The notes below the pieces were generated by a model. It searched no databases. It was not told the DNA's origin and worked only from the letters and a program-made list of their open reading frames with translations. From Bacteroidia bacterium (lineage in GTDB: Bacteria; Bacteroidota; Bacteroidia; UBA4408), in assembly GCA_043778625.1 (NCBI GenBank), contig JAYWFU010000147.1, forward strand, positions 31,516 to 95,515: a stretch of 64,000 bases of DNA, in the 5' to 3' direction. The position numbers and the translations under genes are program-made. The stretch's first letter is position 1. Every line of letters starts with the position of its first letter. Shown here one piece after another: positions 47,124 through 55,362 of this stretch.

Positions 47124-47924
47124 TTGTTACGAACTATGAAAAAAATATTAAATATACTAATTGCCCTAGTGTTTACCGCTGTTTCAGCTAATGCGGCACA
47201 AATAATTATAGAAGGAAACTATCAAGGTAAAAACCTATACATATCCAATCCGTACGCTGGTTCGGGTGTTGGTTTTTGTGTGTACGAGGTGTATGTTAAT
47301 GATAAATTAACTACTGACGAGTGGAACTCAAGTGCGTTTGAGGTTGATTTTACTAATTTTTCGTTAAAAAGTGGAGATAAAGTTACTGTTAAAATAAAAC
47401 ATAAAGACGATTGCAAACCAAAGGTGTTAAATCCTGAAGTATTAAAACCAAAAAGTACATTTGAAATAGTATCAATGAAAGTTGAAAAAGACGGTACTTT
47501 AAATTGGAAAGCAAAAGGCGAAACTGGTAAATTAGGATACGTAGTAGAGCAATTTCGTTGGAATAAATGGATTAAAGTAACCGATGTACAAGGCAAAGGG
47601 CAAGAAGCACCAACTGATTATAGTGCTAAAGTTGTACCACACTCAGGTGAAAACAAATTTAGAGTAAAACAAGTTGATTTTAGTGGTAGTCCTCGTTATT
47701 CTGAGCCTGTAAAATTTCGTTCAATGAGTAAAGAAATTACATTTTCGCCTGTTAAACCTGACAAAGAAGTTACCTTTAGTGATGAAACAATGTTTGAAGT
47801 ATGGGATCAGTACGGTAATATTGTAAAAAAAGGAAGTGGAGCTAAGGTAGATGTTACTAGTTTACAAAAAGGAATTTACTACTTAAATTTTGATAATAAA
47901 ACGGATAAGTTTATAAAAAAATAA
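47124..47924 (+). CDS. hypothetical secreted protein
   Basis: Signal peptide; 266 aa. Confidence 0.5.
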   Translation: MLRTMKKILNILIALVFTAVSANAAQIIIEGNYQGKNLYISNPYAGSGVGFCVYEVYVNDKLTTDEWNSSAFEVDFTNFSLKSGDKVTVKIKHKDDCKPKVLNPEVLKPKSTFEIVSMKVEKDGTLNWKAKGETGKLGYVVEQFRWNKWIKVTDVQGKGQEAPTDYSAKVVPHSGENKFRVKQVDFSGSPRYSEPVKFRSMSKEITFSPVKPDKEVTFSDETMFEVWDQYGNIVKKGSGAKVDVTSLQKGIYYLNFDNKTDKFIKK

Positions 47925-47945
47925 TAGCATAACACAATTTACTAC

Positions 47946-47988
47946 AAAAAGGGAGCAAGCAAATGTGTTTGTTCCCTTTTTAAATTTT
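47946..47988 (+). terminator. rho-independent terminator hairpin (AAAAGGGA...TCCCTTTT + T-run)
   Basis: Imperfect stem then TTTTTAAATTTT. Confidence 0.45.
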
Positions 47989-48007
47989 AACACATCGCAC
48001 CTATTTT

Positions 48008-48910
48008 ATGTTTCCGTATTCATTACCCATAACTAACACACTGCACACTCCCTACGGTAGTATTAATAGCTTTGTAACCACAGCTGTAAATACTGACCAA
48101 GCTACAGTAGAATCGTTTGGCGATGAGTGGACAAAGTTTAATAGTTTTTCAGCTCAAGATATTGCTACTGCAGGCGCTGAGTATTTTGATATAGTTACTC
48201 CCGCTATGCTTAACACTAATAGTACTGTGCTTGATGTAGGTTGTGGTACTGGCCGCTGGAGTATGTACGTGGCTAACAGAGCCAAATTTATTGAGGCCGT
48301 TGACCCCAGTAGTGCTGTGGTAAGTGCGCAACAACTCACACAAGCTAAATGCACTAATGTTAGAATAACACAAGCCAGTGCCGATGCTATTCCGTTTGCT
48401 AACAACTCTTTTGACTTTGTGTTTAGCTTAGGTGTACTGCACCACATACCTAATACCCAGCAAGCTATTATTGATAGCGTGAGCAAGCTCAAGCCTAGCG
48501 GTTGGTTTTTGGTGTACTTGTATTATAATTTGGATAATAGAGGTGTGGGATATAAAATGGTGTTTTACGCATCAACTATTTTACGTTTAATTATTAATAA
48601 ATTACCCGCTACCATCAAGCTAATAGTGGCCGATTGTATAGCTGTTGCGGTGTACATGCCATTGGTGCTATTGGCACGAACACTTGTTAAAATAGGGTGG
48701 GAGAGTAGTGCTAAAAAAATGCCGTTGTATTATTATGTAGATAAAAATTTTCATATTATTAGAAACGATGCATTAGATAGATTTGGTACGCCTTTAGAAC
48801 AACGATTTTCCAAAAAGGAAATTGAAACTATGTTACGCAATGCAGGATTAAGCAACATTACATTTTCAACTAATCAACCTTACTGGCATGCTGTTGGTCA
48901 AAAAATATAA
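48008..48910 (+). CDS. class I SAM-dependent methyltransferase
   Basis: VLDVGCGTGRWS motif I. Confidence 0.75.
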   Translation: MFPYSLPITNTLHTPYGSINSFVTTAVNTDQATVESFGDEWTKFNSFSAQDIATAGAEYFDIVTPAMLNTNSTVLDVGCGTGRWSMYVANRAKFIEAVDPSSAVVSAQQLTQAKCTNVRITQASADAIPFANNSFDFVFSLGVLHHIPNTQQAIIDSVSKLKPSGWFLVYLYYNLDNRGVGYKMVFYASTILRLIINKLPATIKLIVADCIAVAVYMPLVLLARTLVKIGWESSAKKMPLYYYVDKNFHIIRNDALDRFGTPLEQRFSKKEIETMLRNAGLSNITFSTNQPYWHAVGQKI

Positions 48911-50040
48911 TGGAAAACATGGCAACTAACAAGCAATTATTGTTTTTGTGTCCGCACCCTATAAATACCGCGCCTGGGCAGCGATTGAAGTACGAGCAGT
49001 ATTTTGCACACATTGAAAACGCAGGCTACGCAATAACCGTATCGCCATTTATGACCATGCCCTTTTGGAATATTGTGTATAAGAAAGGCTACTTGTTCCA
49101 AAAAATTAGGTTGACATTATACGGATATTTTATGCGTATTAAAATACTATTTACTTTGCATAAATACGATGCCGTATACGTGTTTTTGTGGGCAACACCG
49201 TTTGGTTTCCCAATTATTGAATGGGCTATTTGCAAACTCAACAAAAACATTATTTATGATATTGACGATATGGTTTTTTTGGGGCACTCAAGTACCGCTA
49301 ATCGTTTTATAGAGCGATTTAAAGGCACCGATAAAATGATTTACTTAATGCAACAAGCCAAGCATGTAATAGTGTGTACGCCCAAGCTACACGAATTTGT
49401 AAAGCAATATAACGCTAACAGTACTGATATATCGTCCACTATAAATACTGATACGTACCAAATTGCAAACGAGTACACCAATCATAAACGGTTGGTGCTG
49501 GGCTGGAGTGGTAGCCATAGCACATCAAAATACTTGTTGTTGTTAGAACCTGTGCTACAAAAATTAAAACACGAATTTGATTTTGAAATTAGAGTAATAG
49601 GCGATGCTAACTTTAAATTTAACGAACTAGCCGCTAACGCTATTGCGTGGAACGCCAGTACTGAGGTAGCCGATTTACAACAAATTGATATTGGCCTGTA
49701 TCCATTACCTAACGAAGAGTGGGTGTATGGCAAAAGCGGCTTAAAAGCACTGCAATACATGGCATTGGGCATACCTACGGTTGCCACTGCTATTGGCGCT
49801 AATTACAGAGTTATTGAACACGAAAAAAGCGGTTATTTAGCAAGCTCCGAAACAGAATGGTATGCAGCATTAAAACAACTTATTGAAAACCCATCATTGC
49901 GCCAAACTATTGGCGCAACAGCCCGAGAGCGGGTAGTGCAACACTATTCAATAACAGCTAATAAGCAAACTTATATTGATATAATAACTAAGGTGGTAGC
50001 TACCTATTTTTTAATTTGTATTGTTATCAATTGCACTTAA
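48910..50040 (+). CDS. glycosyltransferase family 1/4 (GT-B)
   Basis: C-terminal GT-B region GIPTVATAIGANYRVIEHEKSGYL. Confidence 0.75.
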   Translation: MENMATNKQLLFLCPHPINTAPGQRLKYEQYFAHIENAGYAITVSPFMTMPFWNIVYKKGYLFQKIRLTLYGYFMRIKILFTLHKYDAVYVFLWATPFGFPIIEWAICKLNKNIIYDIDDMVFLGHSSTANRFIERFKGTDKMIYLMQQAKHVIVCTPKLHEFVKQYNANSTDISSTINTDTYQIANEYTNHKRLVLGWSGSHSTSKYLLLLEPVLQKLKHEFDFEIRVIGDANFKFNELAANAIAWNASTEVADLQQIDIGLYPLPNEEWVYGKSGLKALQYMALGIPTVATAIGANYRVIEHEKSGYLASSETEWYAALKQLIENPSLRQTIGATARERVVQHYSITANKQTYIDIITKVVATYFLICIVINCT

Positions 50041-50757
50041 ATACTTGTTATATAATTCAACAAATATTTTATCAATTAAAATTAGAATACTGAAATAAAT
50101 AAAATAGTTGTCGTATTTATAATTAGGATTTGCTAGTGTATTTAATGTGGGTAAGTTTTGTTGATAAGATAGAGTATTATGAGCAATTCGGTTTCGATGA
50201 TTGTATAATAGTTTATGTTTTTTTTGTAAATTATCTCCAAATAAATTTATACTGTCATGCTTCCCTTTCACGAAAATATCACTTGGAGTTATTTTCATTT
50301 CTATAAAAGTATTAAAATTCTCCTGATCCCAAATTGATAAATTTGTAGCCGCAAAATTATTCTTCACAAAATCAATTGTATTTTCTAACATATTTGTTAA
50401 ATCAATTTCTAATTTAAAATCAAATGTTGAATTGTGTTCTATTACTTGCTTTAGTAGTTGGAGGAAGACTTTGTTTTTATCTGTGTAAGATGAGCATTCT
50501 CCTAATTTTGCTTCATTTGCTAATAAAGTACGTCTATAATCAAAATCATTTGTTGCTATTTCCCAAACAATACACTTTAATTTTTGTTCCTGAAACCCTG
50601 TCATTTTTAAAAAAACTGATGGCATCAAATAATCACGCAAAGAAAATGTTTCAATGCCATTTCCAATTCCGGCACTTGCATGTACCACCTCTTCTAATAT
50701 ATGAGTAATAGATGATTCAATAAACTTTTTATGAACGCTATGATACATCGTTGTCAA
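50011..50757 (-). CDS. HEPN-domain nuclease, MAE_28990/MAE_18760-like family
   Basis: R-x4-H motif in NHRNRIAHN; ~250 aa all-alpha composition; overlaps upstream DUF262 gene by 20 nt. Confidence 0.6.
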   Translation of the reverse strand: MTTMYHSVHKKFIESSITHILEEVVHASAGIGNGIETFSLRDYLMPSVFLKMTGFQEQKLKCIVWEIATNDFDYRRTLLANEAKLGECSSYTDKNKVFLQLLKQVIEHNSTFDFKLEIDLTNMLENTIDFVKNNFAATNLSIWDQENFNTFIEMKITPSDIFVKGKHDSINLFGDNLQKKHKLLYNHRNRIAHNTLSYQQNLPTLNTLANPNYKYDNYFIYFSILILIDKIFVELYNKYLSAIDNNTN

Positions 50758-51937
50758 TTTTCACATACTTATCCATTATTTTGATTGATTTATCAATACG
50801 TTCCCGTAAATACTTTAATGTACTTGGAGACTTTGCATGTAGCTTATCATTTTTAAATACAGTAGTTTCTCTGTTTATATTTGGTTGTAATTCTACCAAC
50901 CTTGCAATATCTATGCTTTTATTTTCAAAAATTACTGCGTAAATCAAACCAAAAAGCATCATGTCTAAGTCAATAATTGAATCAAACTGTTTTGTAAGAA
51001 ACACATCTTCTATTGCTTTCTGTAACAATTCACATTTAGCTTTGAATTCTTTCTGGGGAAAAACAGTTTCGAAATCAACAAATAATCCACAACTCTCATC
51101 ACCTGTAACGGAACAAATATATTTTTCGTAATAGCTTTCCATTCTAGACTTAAAGCCAATTCCTATTTGAGCTGTATTTGAGTCTTTTTTATATTGCGAC
51201 AATAAAGACATATACCTTACGAAGTCGGCACAACCTACATTGTTAACAATTAGTTTTTCGAAAAAATCAGGCGCGAAATAATTAGCTAAACTTTCGTCAG
51301 AGTAATAGAGAGACGCTCTTTTTTCTTGCGCTGATAAAGATTTACCTTCATTATTTATACTCCTAAAAACTGTAGAATAATACTTTTGTTGTTCCTTTTT
51401 ATCTTCACTATGAGGTACTACATAAGAAAAACCTAAAAAAGTATTGCTAAAAAAATCATCCTTTATACCAAGATTCATTATTTTATAATTAGCCTTTTCA
51501 ATGTTTTCAATGCTTTGAATAATTTGATCTTTATTTTTACCAATTTTTGTTAACTCGTCAAATCGCCACACTAAAGCATTATCTTCATCTTCATTTTCAC
51601 TATCATTTTCATCCGCAATTTTTACTGTCTTGTCTTTGTACTTACTGGTATTAGGGAAATAACCTACGTATGCTAGTAAAATACTTGTTAGTCGTTGCTG
51701 TCCATCAAGAATTAAATTAGTTTTAACATCACCACTTTTAACATCACTACTTTTAAATGCACCTATTGTAATTGGCGGAACAAATTGATTGTTTTTTAAT
51801 GCATCGATTAGTGTTTTAACCTTTTTATCATCCCAAACAAAACGCCTTTGATATGCTGGAAGAGTAATGTTTTTTTTGAGAATTAATTCAATCCAATGCA
51901 TGAGCGAATACTGCCCATAATATACTCGGTTTTCCAT
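50738..51937 (-). CDS. DUF262 (ParB-like nuclease / GmrSD N-terminal) domain protein
   Basis: Hallmark LDGQQRLTS motif and N-terminal ...QRRFVWD...; 399 aa; no DUF1524/HNH C-terminal nuclease. Confidence 0.8.
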   Translation of the reverse strand: MENRVYYGQYSLMHWIELILKKNITLPAYQRRFVWDDKKVKTLIDALKNNQFVPPITIGAFKSSDVKSGDVKTNLILDGQQRLTSILLAYVGYFPNTSKYKDKTVKIADENDSENEDEDNALVWRFDELTKIGKNKDQIIQSIENIEKANYKIMNLGIKDDFFSNTFLGFSYVVPHSEDKKEQQKYYSTVFRSINNEGKSLSAQEKRASLYYSDESLANYFAPDFFEKLIVNNVGCADFVRYMSLLSQYKKDSNTAQIGIGFKSRMESYYEKYICSVTGDESCGLFVDFETVFPQKEFKAKCELLQKAIEDVFLTKQFDSIIDLDMMLFGLIYAVIFENKSIDIARLVELQPNINRETTVFKNDKLHAKSPSTLKYLRERIDKSIKIMDKYVKIDNDVS

Positions 51938-51987
51938 AACTGTATTTTTACTGTTGTATTTTTACTTGAATGCAAGTGGTATAAGAG

Positions 51988-54105
51988 TTACTCCACTATT
52001 AATTTCTTCACTACTTTAGTACCATTAGCAGTAAGTTCAATTAAATAAAAACCGCTAGCTAATGCACTGGTATTTATATCATAATTATGCTCGCCTAGTG
52101 CTAGGTTATCATTGGCTACTATTTGTACCGTTTGCCCACAAGTATTGGTAATAATTATATTTACATTGCTAGGGTCTGCTAATACAAAACTAATAGTAGC
52201 TAACCCCGCTGATGGATTAGGCTGTACCTGCACACTCTGTTGCGCCATTGCCACATTAGCTAACCCATTGGCCGTTAAATTAGTAGTAAGCTGTATATCA
52301 TCAATATACAAGTTATTACCTCCAGCTTCAGTAAATACATATTTTAATACTACATTATTATTACCGTAAGCGGTTGATAAATTATTAAGCGTTACTAATT
52401 TCCACTCTGTAGCATCGCCTTTTACTGGCACATAATTACCAAATGTAAAGTTACCTGCTATTGGGCTTAAATCGTTAGTGGGGTTAGTAGTGTTGGCGGT
52501 GCGTGCATAACGTGGAGTACCAACAAAACCTAGGTTACAGTTAGTTTGCATGTATAATTCTAATTTATCTTTATCAGTAGATGTCATTGGTGCGTAGGCA
52601 TATCTAAATGATAATGTAGCTGAGGTTACCCCTGTAAAATCAAGTGGCGGAAAATATACTTCGTCCACCCCTCCGTTGGCATTCGCACTGTTATTAATAA
52701 CTAACGCATTATTACCCGTAAAACTTGTAGCATTGGTGGTTTTAAAATACTTATTGTCGTTATTATTATTTAGTGTAATCCAGTTTTGAACAAATGTGGT
52801 ATTGTTTTCAAATCCTTCGTTGAAGTTAGCTACAGGCATCGCTGCAACGGCACTTAATATGTGCACAATACCTGTTTTGGTAATAGTATTATTACCAGCA
52901 GCGTTGCCTACGGTTAGCGTTACGCTATAAGTGCCAGGTGTGGTATAACTAACTTGCTCAGTTGAGTTGGTTGATGTGGCGGGTGTTCCGCCTTGAAACG
53001 TCCAGTTATAATAACTAGGTACTGCATTACTTGAAATATCAGTAAACGTAATAGGTACATTTACGCACGCTACGTTTTTGGTTTGTTTAAAATCGGCAAC
53101 AGGTGCGCATAGTGTTGGCGTGGTAACCCCTGTAACAGCTAAGTTAGCGGAGCTCCATAAATTATTACGCCCCGAAGTACTTGACTGTAAGGCAGCTTGC
53201 ATACGTTGCGCTTGGCCATGAGTAAACATTTTTTCGCAGTAGGAATAATCCATAAAATTTTGAAAATTTTCATCAACTCCTGTACTACATAATTGGTAAG
53301 TACTGGGATCATTTAAGTTAGGGCAACTTAAATATCCTTTTGATGTTGGAGTATCATATACAAAATCATCGTTGTTACAATCAACACCACATGAGTTCCA
53401 GCCAAAAGTGTGATTTAAATCGAGCCAATGCCCAACTTCATGCGTAAGCACACGTGAACTAAACGGATTTGAAGTGCCTATTGAACCAATGTAAGTGTGT
53501 AGTACCACTATTGCATCGGCGGCATCGCCAGTGTTCCAGGTACCTGGTAGCCAAGTATAGCCTGCTGCATTAAAACCGTTACTTAGTTTAATTGATTTAA
53601 CTACATACACGTTCATATACTTAGTTGGGTTCCATGTTTTGTCATATAGTGTTGCCGATTGATCGTCCCAATTACTATTAGCATCATAATAATGCACAAT
53701 ACCATTGGTACAGTTACCATTGGGGTCTTTAGTGGCTAATTCAAACCTAATGTTAGTTGAGTCCGCAATGGTTTTAAACGAAGGAATAATATCAACTGTA
53801 TCCGCATTTTGTTTGGCGTAGTCAATATTCATAACACGCATTTGGTCAATTACTTGTGCGTCCGAAATGTTTTCAGTTCCTCCTAAGTGCAAAATATGAA
53901 ACACCACAGGTATAGTGTAATTGCCCACATGCTTGGCATTAACGGTACGTAAGGCTTTGTTTTTATTTTCCATCTTTGCTTTTAATGCAGGATTGGCAGC
54001 AAACAGTTCGCGCATTTTAACGTCGGATGCACAGCGTAATTCGTTTTGTGCAAAGGCAGTAACTATTAATGATAGTGCGGTGGCTAGGGATATTATTTTT
54101 TTCAT
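51988..54105 (-). CDS. secreted M43 (cytophagalysin/pappalysin-like) zinc metalloprotease with T9SS C-terminal sorting domain
   Basis: HEVGHWLDLNHTF (HExxHxxGxxH-type); signal peptide; C-terminal beta-sandwich ending ...GTKVVKKLIVE. Confidence 0.75.
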   Translation of the reverse strand: MKKIISLATALSLIVTAFAQNELRCASDVKMRELFAANPALKAKMENKNKALRTVNAKHVGNYTIPVVFHILHLGGTENISDAQVIDQMRVMNIDYAKQNADTVDIIPSFKTIADSTNIRFELATKDPNGNCTNGIVHYYDANSNWDDQSATLYDKTWNPTKYMNVYVVKSIKLSNGFNAAGYTWLPGTWNTGDAADAIVVLHTYIGSIGTSNPFSSRVLTHEVGHWLDLNHTFGWNSCGVDCNNDDFVYDTPTSKGYLSCPNLNDPSTYQLCSTGVDENFQNFMDYSYCEKMFTHGQAQRMQAALQSSTSGRNNLWSSANLAVTGVTTPTLCAPVADFKQTKNVACVNVPITFTDISSNAVPSYYNWTFQGGTPATSTNSTEQVSYTTPGTYSVTLTVGNAAGNNTITKTGIVHILSAVAAMPVANFNEGFENNTTFVQNWITLNNNNDNKYFKTTNATSFTGNNALVINNSANANGGVDEVYFPPLDFTGVTSATLSFRYAYAPMTSTDKDKLELYMQTNCNLGFVGTPRYARTANTTNPTNDLSPIAGNFTFGNYVPVKGDATEWKLVTLNNLSTAYGNNNVVLKYVFTEAGGNNLYIDDIQLTTNLTANGLANVAMAQQSVQVQPNPSAGLATISFVLADPSNVNIIITNTCGQTVQIVANDNLALGEHNYDINTSALASGFYLIELTANGTKVVKKLIVE

Positions 54106-54239
54106 AGTTGTAAATATTAATTTATATAATTTAAAGATATTAAATAATTAACATCAAAATGTATTTTTTCAACGTAAATGCTTTTGTAGCTCGTTATACC
54201 ACGTTTAATTACAAGTTATTTTTACGTAAGTTTACAATT

Positions 54240-54611
54240 ATGAAAAAAGCAATTACCACCATTGTATTACTTGTTTGTTCCAATGCCTTTATGACTTTTG
54301 CGTGGTATGGGCATTTAAAATTTAAACAAATGAATTGGTTTAATAACATAGGCTTAGTGGGCATTATAGTCATTAGTTGGGGTATTGCATTGTTAGAATA
54401 CGCGTTTCAGGTGCCAGCCAACAAAATAGGTTATATTGATAACGGAGGCCCGTTTAACCTTTGGCAATTAAAAGTAATACAGGAGGTAATAACATTAGTA
54501 ATGTTTACACTATTTACGATAACTTTTTTTAAAAACGAAACGCTAAAAACTAATCACTTTATTGGCTTTGGATTTTTGATATTGGCAGTTTATTTCATTT
54601 TTAAAAAATAA
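54240..54611 (+). CDS. small DMT-superfamily-like membrane protein (DUF486-like)
   Basis: Four hydrophobic helices; start MKKAITT at 54240 preferred over ORF-track 54159. Confidence 0.5.
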   Translation: MKKAITTIVLLVCSNAFMTFAWYGHLKFKQMNWFNNIGLVGIIVISWGIALLEYAFQVPANKIGYIDNGGPFNLWQLKVIQEVITLVMFTLFTITFFKNETLKTNHFIGFGFLILAVYFIFKK

Positions 54612-54612
54612 A

Positions 54613-55362
54613 ATGTGTAATTTTAATTTCAAAATGAAATTCACGGCATCGTCTTATTTAATAACTACTACCGCAAACCAAGCCATACTTGTTGTAAGCT
54701 GTTGTATACTATTGATAATTGCCTGTAAAAAAACTACCCCTTTAATAACACCTCCTACTTACTACAACTACCAACGTAATGATGTGGGCTACATAGCTAC
54801 TTATGCTGTGGATTCAACCGTGTACGATGATTTTACTAAAACAACTATTAAGTACCGTTACTATATTAAACTATACAACCAAAGCACTTACACCACGGTA
54901 GATACTTTTGCTATTACGCAACAATTGGTATACAAAAGCAACTACGCTAACGATTCGTTTATGTTTATTAGCGTGCGAGGTAGCCAATATCGCAACAACA
55001 AAACTATTGAACTTAACAACAACGTTAAAAGGATACTACTTAACTATCCGTTAATAAAAAACAAGGTATGGAATATTAATGCCGAAAATAATTTAGTCCT
55101 AAAAAATGTAACCGTAACGGCCATTGATAATAGTTACACCTACAACAATACTAGCTACGCTGATGTACGCGAAATTACGTACGAAAACGATTCTAATTTA
55201 ATAACTAAAAATGTAGAATTATATCAATACGCACCTAGCGTAGGGCTAGTGCATAGGCAAGTTACGCATTTACAATCGCAAACCATTAAGCCTAATATTT
55301 CAATATCATTAAGAGCTACTAGTGGCTATAGCGTTAGTTATAACTTGCTAAATCATAATTAG
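54613..55362 (+). CDS. hypothetical lipoprotein
   Basis: LLIIACKK lipobox; Y/T/N-rich. Confidence 0.45.
   Translation: MCNFNFKMKFTASSYLITTTANQAILVVSCCILLIIACKKTTPLITPPTYYNYQRNDVGYIATYAVDSTVYDDFTKTTIKYRYYIKLYNQSTYTTVDTFAITQQLVYKSNYANDSFMFISVRGSQYRNNKTIELNNNVKRILLNYPLIKNKVWNINAENNLVLKNVTVTAIDNSYTYNNTSYADVREITYENDSNLITKNVELYQYAPSVGLVHRQVTHLQSQTIKPNISISLRATSGYSVSYNLLNHN

Follow-up and report, generated by a model that had tools for sequence, protein, structure and literature searches.

Which function is served by two overlapping genes that lie, in a strongly AT-rich patch, between a glycosyltransferase gene and a peptidase gene of a Bacteroidia genome? The question arises from a 64,000-nucleotide (nt) stretch of DNA (assembly GCA_043778625.1, contig JAYWFU010000147.1, positions 31,516 to 95,515 of the forward strand), hereafter called the window, to which all positions refer unless another contig is named. 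An earlier note made from the letters alone had described two minus-strand open reading frames (ORFs) within 50011-51937 as a DUF262-HEPN operon and a candidate uncharacterised defence system. Both ORFs are present as described there, and they are referred to here as genes A and B.

50738-51937, minus strand: gene A, 399 aa, ParB-like DUF262 NTPase whose C-terminal domain is helical, putative sensor of DNA
50011-50748, minus strand: gene B, 245 aa, predicted RNase of the HEPN fold (putative effector)
50738-50748, minus strand: 11-nt overlap of the stop codon of A (TAG) and the start codon of B (ATG), read from the sequence

The A/B pair is probably a self-contained, horizontally acquired two-gene anti-phage module, in which a DUF262 sensor would license a HEPN ribonuclease (RNase) and infection would be aborted. 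Direct support for this reading comes from the domain identities, the intact catalytic motifs, the coupling of the two genes, their co-conservation and co-evolution, the self-sufficiency of the pair and an indel at a variable locus; the rest is extrapolated from the precedents of GmrSD, SspE, Dazbog and HEPN proteins: which protein senses and which acts, which of them controls the other, what the trigger is, that RNA is the target and that infection is aborted. The analysis supports the earlier description as essentially right, with its novelty overstated and the HEPN subfamily mislabelled; the defence function is one that we infer.

Domains and conserved motifs of the two proteins

The following features were located within the two genes.

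51305-51877, minus strand: DUF262/GmrSD_N domain of A, residues 21-211 (Pfam envelope)
51692-51706, minus strand: DGQQR motif of A, residues 78-82, predicted NTP-hydrolysis centre (read from the sequence)
50741-51304, minus strand: C-terminal half of A, residues 212-399, all-helical in the AlphaFold2 (AF2) secondary structure and comparable to the NsnA-C/'ParBDB' region
50575-50589, minus strand: E54-Q-K-L-K58 of B, second HEPN motif, of the form Ex3[KR], within the long helix 38-67
50179-50196, minus strand: R185-N-R-I-A-H190 of B, HEPN motif of the Rx4H type in which a polar residue follows R, spanning the end of helix 172-189 and the beginning of the next loop

Protein A matches the Pfam family GmrSD_N/DUF262 (PF03235) over residues 21-211 with an E-value of 6.7e-25, which exceeds the gathering score; no Pfam match was found past residue 211, and none to DUF1524. 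Its motifs I, II and III read YQRRFVW, DGQQR and FRSIN, the second forming part of LDGQQRLTS at residues 77-85. The literature on GmrSD, BrxU and NsnA links these motifs to NTP binding and hydrolysis, and the role predicted for DGQQR is taken from mutagenesis of GmrSD, BrxU and HEC-06 (bioRxiv 2024.01.29.577857; PMC12137116). YQRxFVW, DGQQR and FRxIN are invariant or almost so, both in 40 aligned relatives and in 70 genome-derived orthologues; among the orthologues, D78, G79 and R82 never vary, and Q80 and Q81 are present in 69 of the 70. The database contains 1,905 homologues of A, with E-values reaching 1e-138.

The AF2 model of A (predicted local distance difference test, pLDDT, 80) consists of an N-terminal half of mixed alpha/beta structure and a purely helical C-terminal half (pLDDT mostly 83-97), in which a beta-beta-alpha His-Me finger was not found. 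These results agree with the earlier description of the upstream protein as a DUF262 protein that carries DGQQR(L)TS and lacks DUF1524. A hidden His-Me motif at the conserved H367-x3-P371 was considered and rejected, the region being helical and the spacing differing from (D/E)HxxP. In comparisons with PADLOC models, the sole near-full-length match was NsnA of the Menshen system (residues 10-388, E = 3.3e-7), and the matches to HEC-05, SspE, HEC-06 and PD-T4-2_A were confined to the DUF262 core. A profile search of solved structures yielded one marginal DUF262 match, and NCBIfam gave no meaningful match for A or B. A is thus predicted, from its sequence and model, to be a ParB-DUF262 protein with a helical domain like NsnA-C or 'ParBDB' (a concept introduced in PMC12065111) and without a nuclease domain.

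A 15-nt tandem duplication (TTTTAACATCAC[C/T]AC, twice, as written on the plus strand) is present at 51721-51750 (minus strand) and encodes SDVKS/GDVKT in A. It amounts to a 5-residue insertion that none of the 39 aligned relatives has, at residues ~63-72, where the DUF262 domain forms a loop modelled with low confidence.

Protein B carries the sequence NHRNRIAHN, in which R185 corresponds to nt 50194-50196 and H190 to nt 50179-50181. R185, N186 and H190 are invariant in the 70 orthologous pairs; E54 is likewise kept in all 70, and K58 is kept in 68 and replaced by R in the remaining two. The HEPN motif proposed from the single sequence therefore withstands proper alignment, with R-N-x3-H and the upstream Ex3[KR] each present in 70 of 70. 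In the AF2 model of B (pLDDT 80.5; predicted template modelling score, pTM, 0.83), the R/H motif closes helix 172-189 at its C-terminal side and extends one residue into the next loop. This placement agrees with the HEPN active site as described by Anantharaman et al. [quoted passage not shown]

In total, 751 database homologues of B were found (E-values down to 1e-96), none of which is named or has precomputed Pfam domains. An exhaustive profile search delimited B and its relatives as a discrete family of 488 representatives at E<=1e-3, 416 of them below 1e-10. The numbers of homologues of both proteins, together with these E-values, place the pair far beyond chance. Sub-threshold Pfam matches among 131 diverse relatives of B were to Abi_2 (8 relatives), HEPN_MAE_28990 (3) and RiboL-PSP (1). 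In a smaller set of 38 relatives, HEPN_MAE_28990 was matched sub-threshold by one and the PADLOC model of AbiD by 16 (best E-value, 1e-5). DzbB, PD-Lambda-5_A, Csx1 and Cas13a were each matched once among the relatives, and families of hidden Markov models (HMMs) other than those of HEPN proteins were matched by a couple of relatives at most. A Foldseek comparison of the B model with the Protein Data Bank (PDB) returned nothing significant, and a profile search of solved structures with B returned only chance-level matches. Taken together, the motifs and the model make it very probable that B belongs to the HEPN superfamily. The weak HMM matches place its family, as far as profiles can tell, nearer to Abi2/AbiD than to MAE_28990, and the earlier label 'MAE_28990-like' is not the most fitting one.

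Several members of the B family (P0258, P0262, P0264, P0277, P0306, P0319, P0331 and P0371) are 300-440 aa long and are matched by the profile in two stretches, which would imply either a fusion or a large insertion between the Ex3K and Rx4H helices, where the middle region is variable.

Co-conservation of the pair and its site of insertion

The start codon of B was assigned to the ATG at 50748 on the basis of the N-termini of family members and of an identical public protein (P0001, 245 aa); the TTG at 50757 is not supported. The overlap between the two genes, previously given as 20 nt on the assumption of that TTG, is real but amounts to 11 nt. Gene pairs were surveyed by scanning one genome per species, which yielded 80 loci encoding relatives of B. 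In 77 of these, a relative of A lies immediately upstream on the same strand, and the two genes are accordingly co-conserved, as had been expected of an operon. The three exceptions comprise two loci at contig ends (L046 and L061) and one apparently decayed locus (L040) with a shortened B and no A. The start of B overlaps or abuts the stop of A in all but 2-3 of the 77 loci, the usual overlap being 4, 8 or 11 nt, an arrangement that implies a probable translational coupling of the two genes. In 70 pairs, the pairwise distances of A and B are correlated (Mantel r = 0.74, reached in none of 999 permutations), and A and B co-evolve.

Signs of decay were seen at a few loci. In L040 (3817-4518), B is cut to 199 aa and there is no A upstream; damaged copies of A were found at L025:6837-7880, with an early stop and a 120-nt gap before B, and at L033:7286-8005, which is without the N-terminal half.

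The hosts are mainly Bacteroidota and also include Gammaproteobacteria (Gilliamella, Moraxella, Idiomarina and Saccharospirillum), Desulfobulbus, Streptococcus, Lactococcus, Lachnospiraceae, cyanobacteria and Campylobacter. No conserved third gene (methylase, ABC ATPase or other) accompanies the pair: no Pfam family is represented by more than 4 of the 135 non-redundant genes immediately adjacent to it. A minority of loci adjoin defence genes, namely DRT3, type I and type IIG restriction-modification systems, pAgo, SoFic, Lamassu (LmuB) and PDC candidates. The GC content of the pair is below that of its flanks in 64 of 70 loci (means of 31.7 and 40.9%, respectively), and in the window it is 28.8%, compared with 36.7% for the rest, in keeping with the AT-rich patch noted earlier.

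The context of the module recurs within genera in the form of lineage-specific islands. In Streptococcus (L052-L054, L057-L059, L064, L067 and L068), a gene for a protein of ~649 aa lies upstream of the module and genes for 248 and 124 aa lie downstream; in Lachnospiraceae and relatives (L071, L072 and L074), a block of genes for ~380, 380, 570, 600 and 300 aa lies upstream; and in Prevotella (L062, L065 and L066), genes for ~1,435 and 172 aa occupy the upstream side.

The boundaries of the pair in the window were defined by comparison with an allele that lacks it. The features concerned are as follows.

48910-50040, plus strand: GT1/GT4 glycosyltransferase gene, convergent with B, with a 30-nt overlap at the 3' end of B
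51988-54105, minus strand: M43 peptidase gene with a type IX secretion system (T9SS) sorting domain (tail), upstream neighbour of A
50007-51987, no strand: inserted cassette of 1,981 bp with exactly two genes, replaced by 42 bp at the same place in L090 (L090:3525-3566; blastn)
49991-50005, plus strand: remnant of an intergenic terminator hairpin, interrupted by the cassette and followed by a T-run (plus strand; terminator scan)

The flanks are those given in the earlier note, the 'T9SS protease' being the M43 peptidase. L090 is a metagenomic contig of a close relative, whose GT1 protein is 92% identical. In a blastn comparison, positions 46501-50006 and 51988-54265 of the window are collinear with L090 at 84-86% nucleotide identity, and only the cassette block differs. 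At the empty site in L090, the full terminator hairpin AAGGTGGTAG...CTACCACCTT is intact and perfect, with the stop codon of GT1 (TAG) in its loop. In the window, the cassette starts within this hairpin, the stop codon of GT1 has been displaced and GT1 reads 15 codons further into the cassette, which accounts for the convergent overlap of GT1 and B. The resulting 15-residue tail (YFLICIVINCT..., 49996-50040, plus strand) is antisense to the 3' end of B, and GT1 is 376 aa long here as compared with ~360 aa in most homologues.

In a contig of a second relative, L092 (GT1 87% identical), a tyrosine integrase occupies the same site, accompanied by a protein that matches the PADLOC candidate PDC-M48B (5e-29) and by one of 200 aa (L092:3170-5935). 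Three allelic states thus exist downstream of GT1: empty (L090), DUF262-HEPN (the window) and an integrase with other cargo (L092). The site looks like a small hot spot for defence cargo. The 200-aa protein of L092 shows a weak match to Csx27. Neither convincing target-site duplications or terminal inverted repeats at the ends of the cassette nor a tRNA gene adjacent to it were found. From the comparison of these sequences, we infer that the cassette was acquired horizontally.

Proposed action, related systems and competing explanations

If the pair acts in defence, A would be the sensor and, as GmrSD, BrxU, SspE and Dazbog suggest, would recognise invading DNA, most likely by a modification of that DNA or by some other mark of non-self. 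Its helical C-terminal domain is probably DNA-binding, and recognition would be coupled to the binding and hydrolysis of NTP. B, which the stop/start overlap would allow to be produced in fixed stoichiometry with A, would be a metal-independent RNase of the HEPN fold that is inactive while complexed with A. After sensing, A would release B or activate it allosterically; active B would then cut host and/or phage RNA (tRNA, rRNA or mRNA), and this cleavage would lead to translation arrest and to the abortion of infection. For a catalytic role of HEPN residues in defence, HEC-08 provides a precedent, as mutations of its HEPN R/H residues abolish defence.

The combination of the two domains is not new. 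Fusions and operons of ParB/DUF262 with HEPN were published in 2013 (PMC3710099, PMC3632139), and this architecture was validated in 2022 with PD-T4-2 of Escherichia coli ECOR65 (Vassallo et al. 2022; PMC9519451), which is annotated as 'DUF262, HEPN' and protects against T4 both natively and in K-12. The earlier term 'uncharacterised' consequently holds for the sequence family but not for the architecture. PD-T4-2 resembles the pair in having two adjacent genes in the same order, one for a DUF262 protein without DUF1524 followed by one for a HEPN protein (Table S1, PMC9519451). The HHpred matches of PD-T4-2B, HEPN_RiboL-PSP and HEPN_MAE_28990 (PMC9519451), are two of the three Pfam HEPN families weakly matched by relatives of B. 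The span of PD-T4-2 is 1.54 kb as opposed to 1.93 kb here, where the proteins are larger, and its PD-T4-2_A model matches relatives of A, too, in the DUF262 core only.

Dazbog (DzbA, a DUF262 protein, and DzbB; Millman et al. 2022; Stokar-Avihail et al.) is abortive and is triggered by a phage cytosine methylase or methylation (bioRxiv 2022.08.27.505566). It also consists of two genes with DUF262 first and no DUF1524, and its abortive response to modified DNA is the mechanism envisaged here, whereas it is absent from the listed HEPN-containing systems. Members of the pair in Firmicutes and Proteobacteria were considered as a bridge to Dazbog and rejected, as the DzbA and DzbB models missed there too. 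Menshen (Li et al. 2025) comprises the sensor NsnA (ParB-DUF262 plus ParBDB), the ABC ATPase NsnB and a variable RNase effector, NsnC (inPIN-effector). Its NsnA profile aligns with A over positions 51-375 of 385, with QRxxxW, DGxQR, FxxxN and a helical C-terminal domain in common; the match is weak for A, and E-values go down to 7e-11 in relatives. Genes for NsnB and NsnC are absent here and in the orthologous loci, and the putative effector is instead the downstream HEPN gene. In structure, A is matched best by the type IV restriction enzymes GmrSD, BrxU and SspE, which likewise have a DUF262 NTPase with DGQQR at the N-terminus but possess a DUF1524 His-Me nuclease that A lacks; the putative effector of the pair is a separate RNase-type protein rather than a fused DNase. 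Finally, the Abi2/AbiD/AbiF and MAE_28990/RiboL-PSP families of HEPN proteins (Anantharaman et al. 2013), which published neighbourhood notes tie to ParB/DUF262 genes (PMC3710099), have Rx4H with N after R, the upstream Ex3K and, as far as the model of B shows, a helical bundle in common with B, whose family is separate and scores below the gathering scores of the Pfam HEPN families. As judged by these profile comparisons, the A/B pair belongs to no named system and appears as a variant within the known DUF262-plus-HEPN architecture.

The chances are about even that the pair represents a distinct, unnamed defence family (~490 clusters when grouped at 50% identity, from five or more phyla), in which an NsnA-like sensor would license an Abi2-like HEPN RNase without an ATPase transducer, bridging Menshen, Dazbog and PD-T4-2. 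Such a family could show how NTP hydrolysis by DUF262 is relayed to a distinct effector protein and what feature of the DNA the sensor detects. If validated, it would be a widespread two-gene system missed by current PADLOC models, chiefly in Bacteroidota and also in Streptococcus, Gilliamella, Moraxella, Lachnospiraceae and cyanobacteria. The pair would then offer a simple setting for the question, common to PD-T4-2, Dazbog and Menshen, of how a DUF262 sensor governs a separate HEPN RNase, and it is a good, widely distributed candidate both for testing by experiment and for working out how DUF262 signals to an effector. With its empty, filled and alternatively filled alleles, the one locus is a clean natural case of turnover of defence cargo. 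The conceptual picture is unchanged, because the architecture and its logic have already been published and are experimentally supported.

Several results weigh against an anti-phage module of this kind, or against its links to the validated systems. B itself has no match in Pfam, PADLOC or NCBIfam, and none to HEPN_MAE_28990 (PF18737) even at E<=10, and no member of its family that was tested reaches a Pfam HEPN gathering score. In the comparison with PADLOC HMMs, by which PD-T4-2 was set apart (profile against sequence, not sequence to sequence), the PD-T4-2_A model matches A with E = 1.4e-7 (residues 26-128 against positions 55-150 of 363), more weakly than do HEC-05 and SspE, and the PD-T4-2_B model matches neither B (E<=1) nor its 38 relatives (E<=10) nor 5 distant relatives (E<=0.1). 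The DzbA model leaves A unmatched (E<=1), and the DzbB model matches one of the 38 relatives of B (7.5e-6) and not B. A deletion of dzbB in Dazbog could not be made or transformed, possibly owing to toxicity; the role of the HEPN partner as the toxin is therefore not secure, and the DUF262 partner is perhaps harmful alone. No other defence genes were found within ~5 kb of the cassette in the window, so that the 'small defence islet' of the earlier note is reduced to one two-gene cassette. A tblastn search with B through 72,556 plasmids and 50,697 phage records came back empty, and 2.9 million viral contigs yielded 5 matches only. An origin of the cassette from a plasmid or phage is accordingly not supported and, since these records are nearly empty of B, the case for mobility rests on the patchy distribution and the indel.

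Other functions of the pair were considered against the same evidence. It might be a toxin-antitoxin or addiction module, with B as a HEPN RNase toxin and A as its neutralising partner (as MNT is for HEPN), kept mainly through post-segregational or selfish stabilisation and without dedicated phage sensing. This is unlikely, because A, an enzyme of 399 aa in which every NTPase motif is invariant, is no small labile antitoxin; it is also encoded upstream and evolves no faster than B (mean pairwise distances of 0.52 for A and 0.53 for B). The nearest validated architectures, PD-T4-2 and Dazbog, are also phage defence systems, yet roles in addiction and in defence can coexist. The pair might instead be a DNA-targeting, type IV-like restriction system, in which A itself would nick or cleave modified DNA and B would be a regulatory or nucleic-acid-binding accessory. 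In GmrSD, BrxU and SspE, however, DUF262 is the NTPase and sensor and cleavage needs the DUF1524 His-Me domain, which is absent from A; the invariant catalytic set of B (R, N, H and E) would moreover be needless in a purely structural partner, and this account is quite improbable.

It is very improbable that the pair is a fragment of a larger system (Menshen without NsnB and NsnC, or a ParB-HEPN-methylase system) and is non-functional alone or reliant on unlinked genes, even though NsnA is the only near-full-length PADLOC match of A. No ABC ATPase, methylase or other family recurs among the 135 immediate neighbours, the pair is intact with its active-site motifs in ~70 diverse genomes, and the cassette in the window consists of exactly two genes. 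A self-contained module in which a DUF262 sensor governs a HEPN RNase remains the preferred reading.

Other features of the window

A scan for sigma-70 promoters in the window gave matches not above the shuffled expectation; such a scan is ill-suited to Bacteroidota. The tRNA gene nearest to the cassette, for tRNA-Met, is located at 41817-41890 (minus strand), ~8 kb away, and has no obvious link to the insertion. A 266-aa protein encoded at 47124-47924 (plus strand) has a sub-threshold T9SS sorting tail. A 249-aa ORF at 54613-55362 (plus strand), which is without a Pfam match, lies beside a DMT-family gene in every contig carrying the locus.

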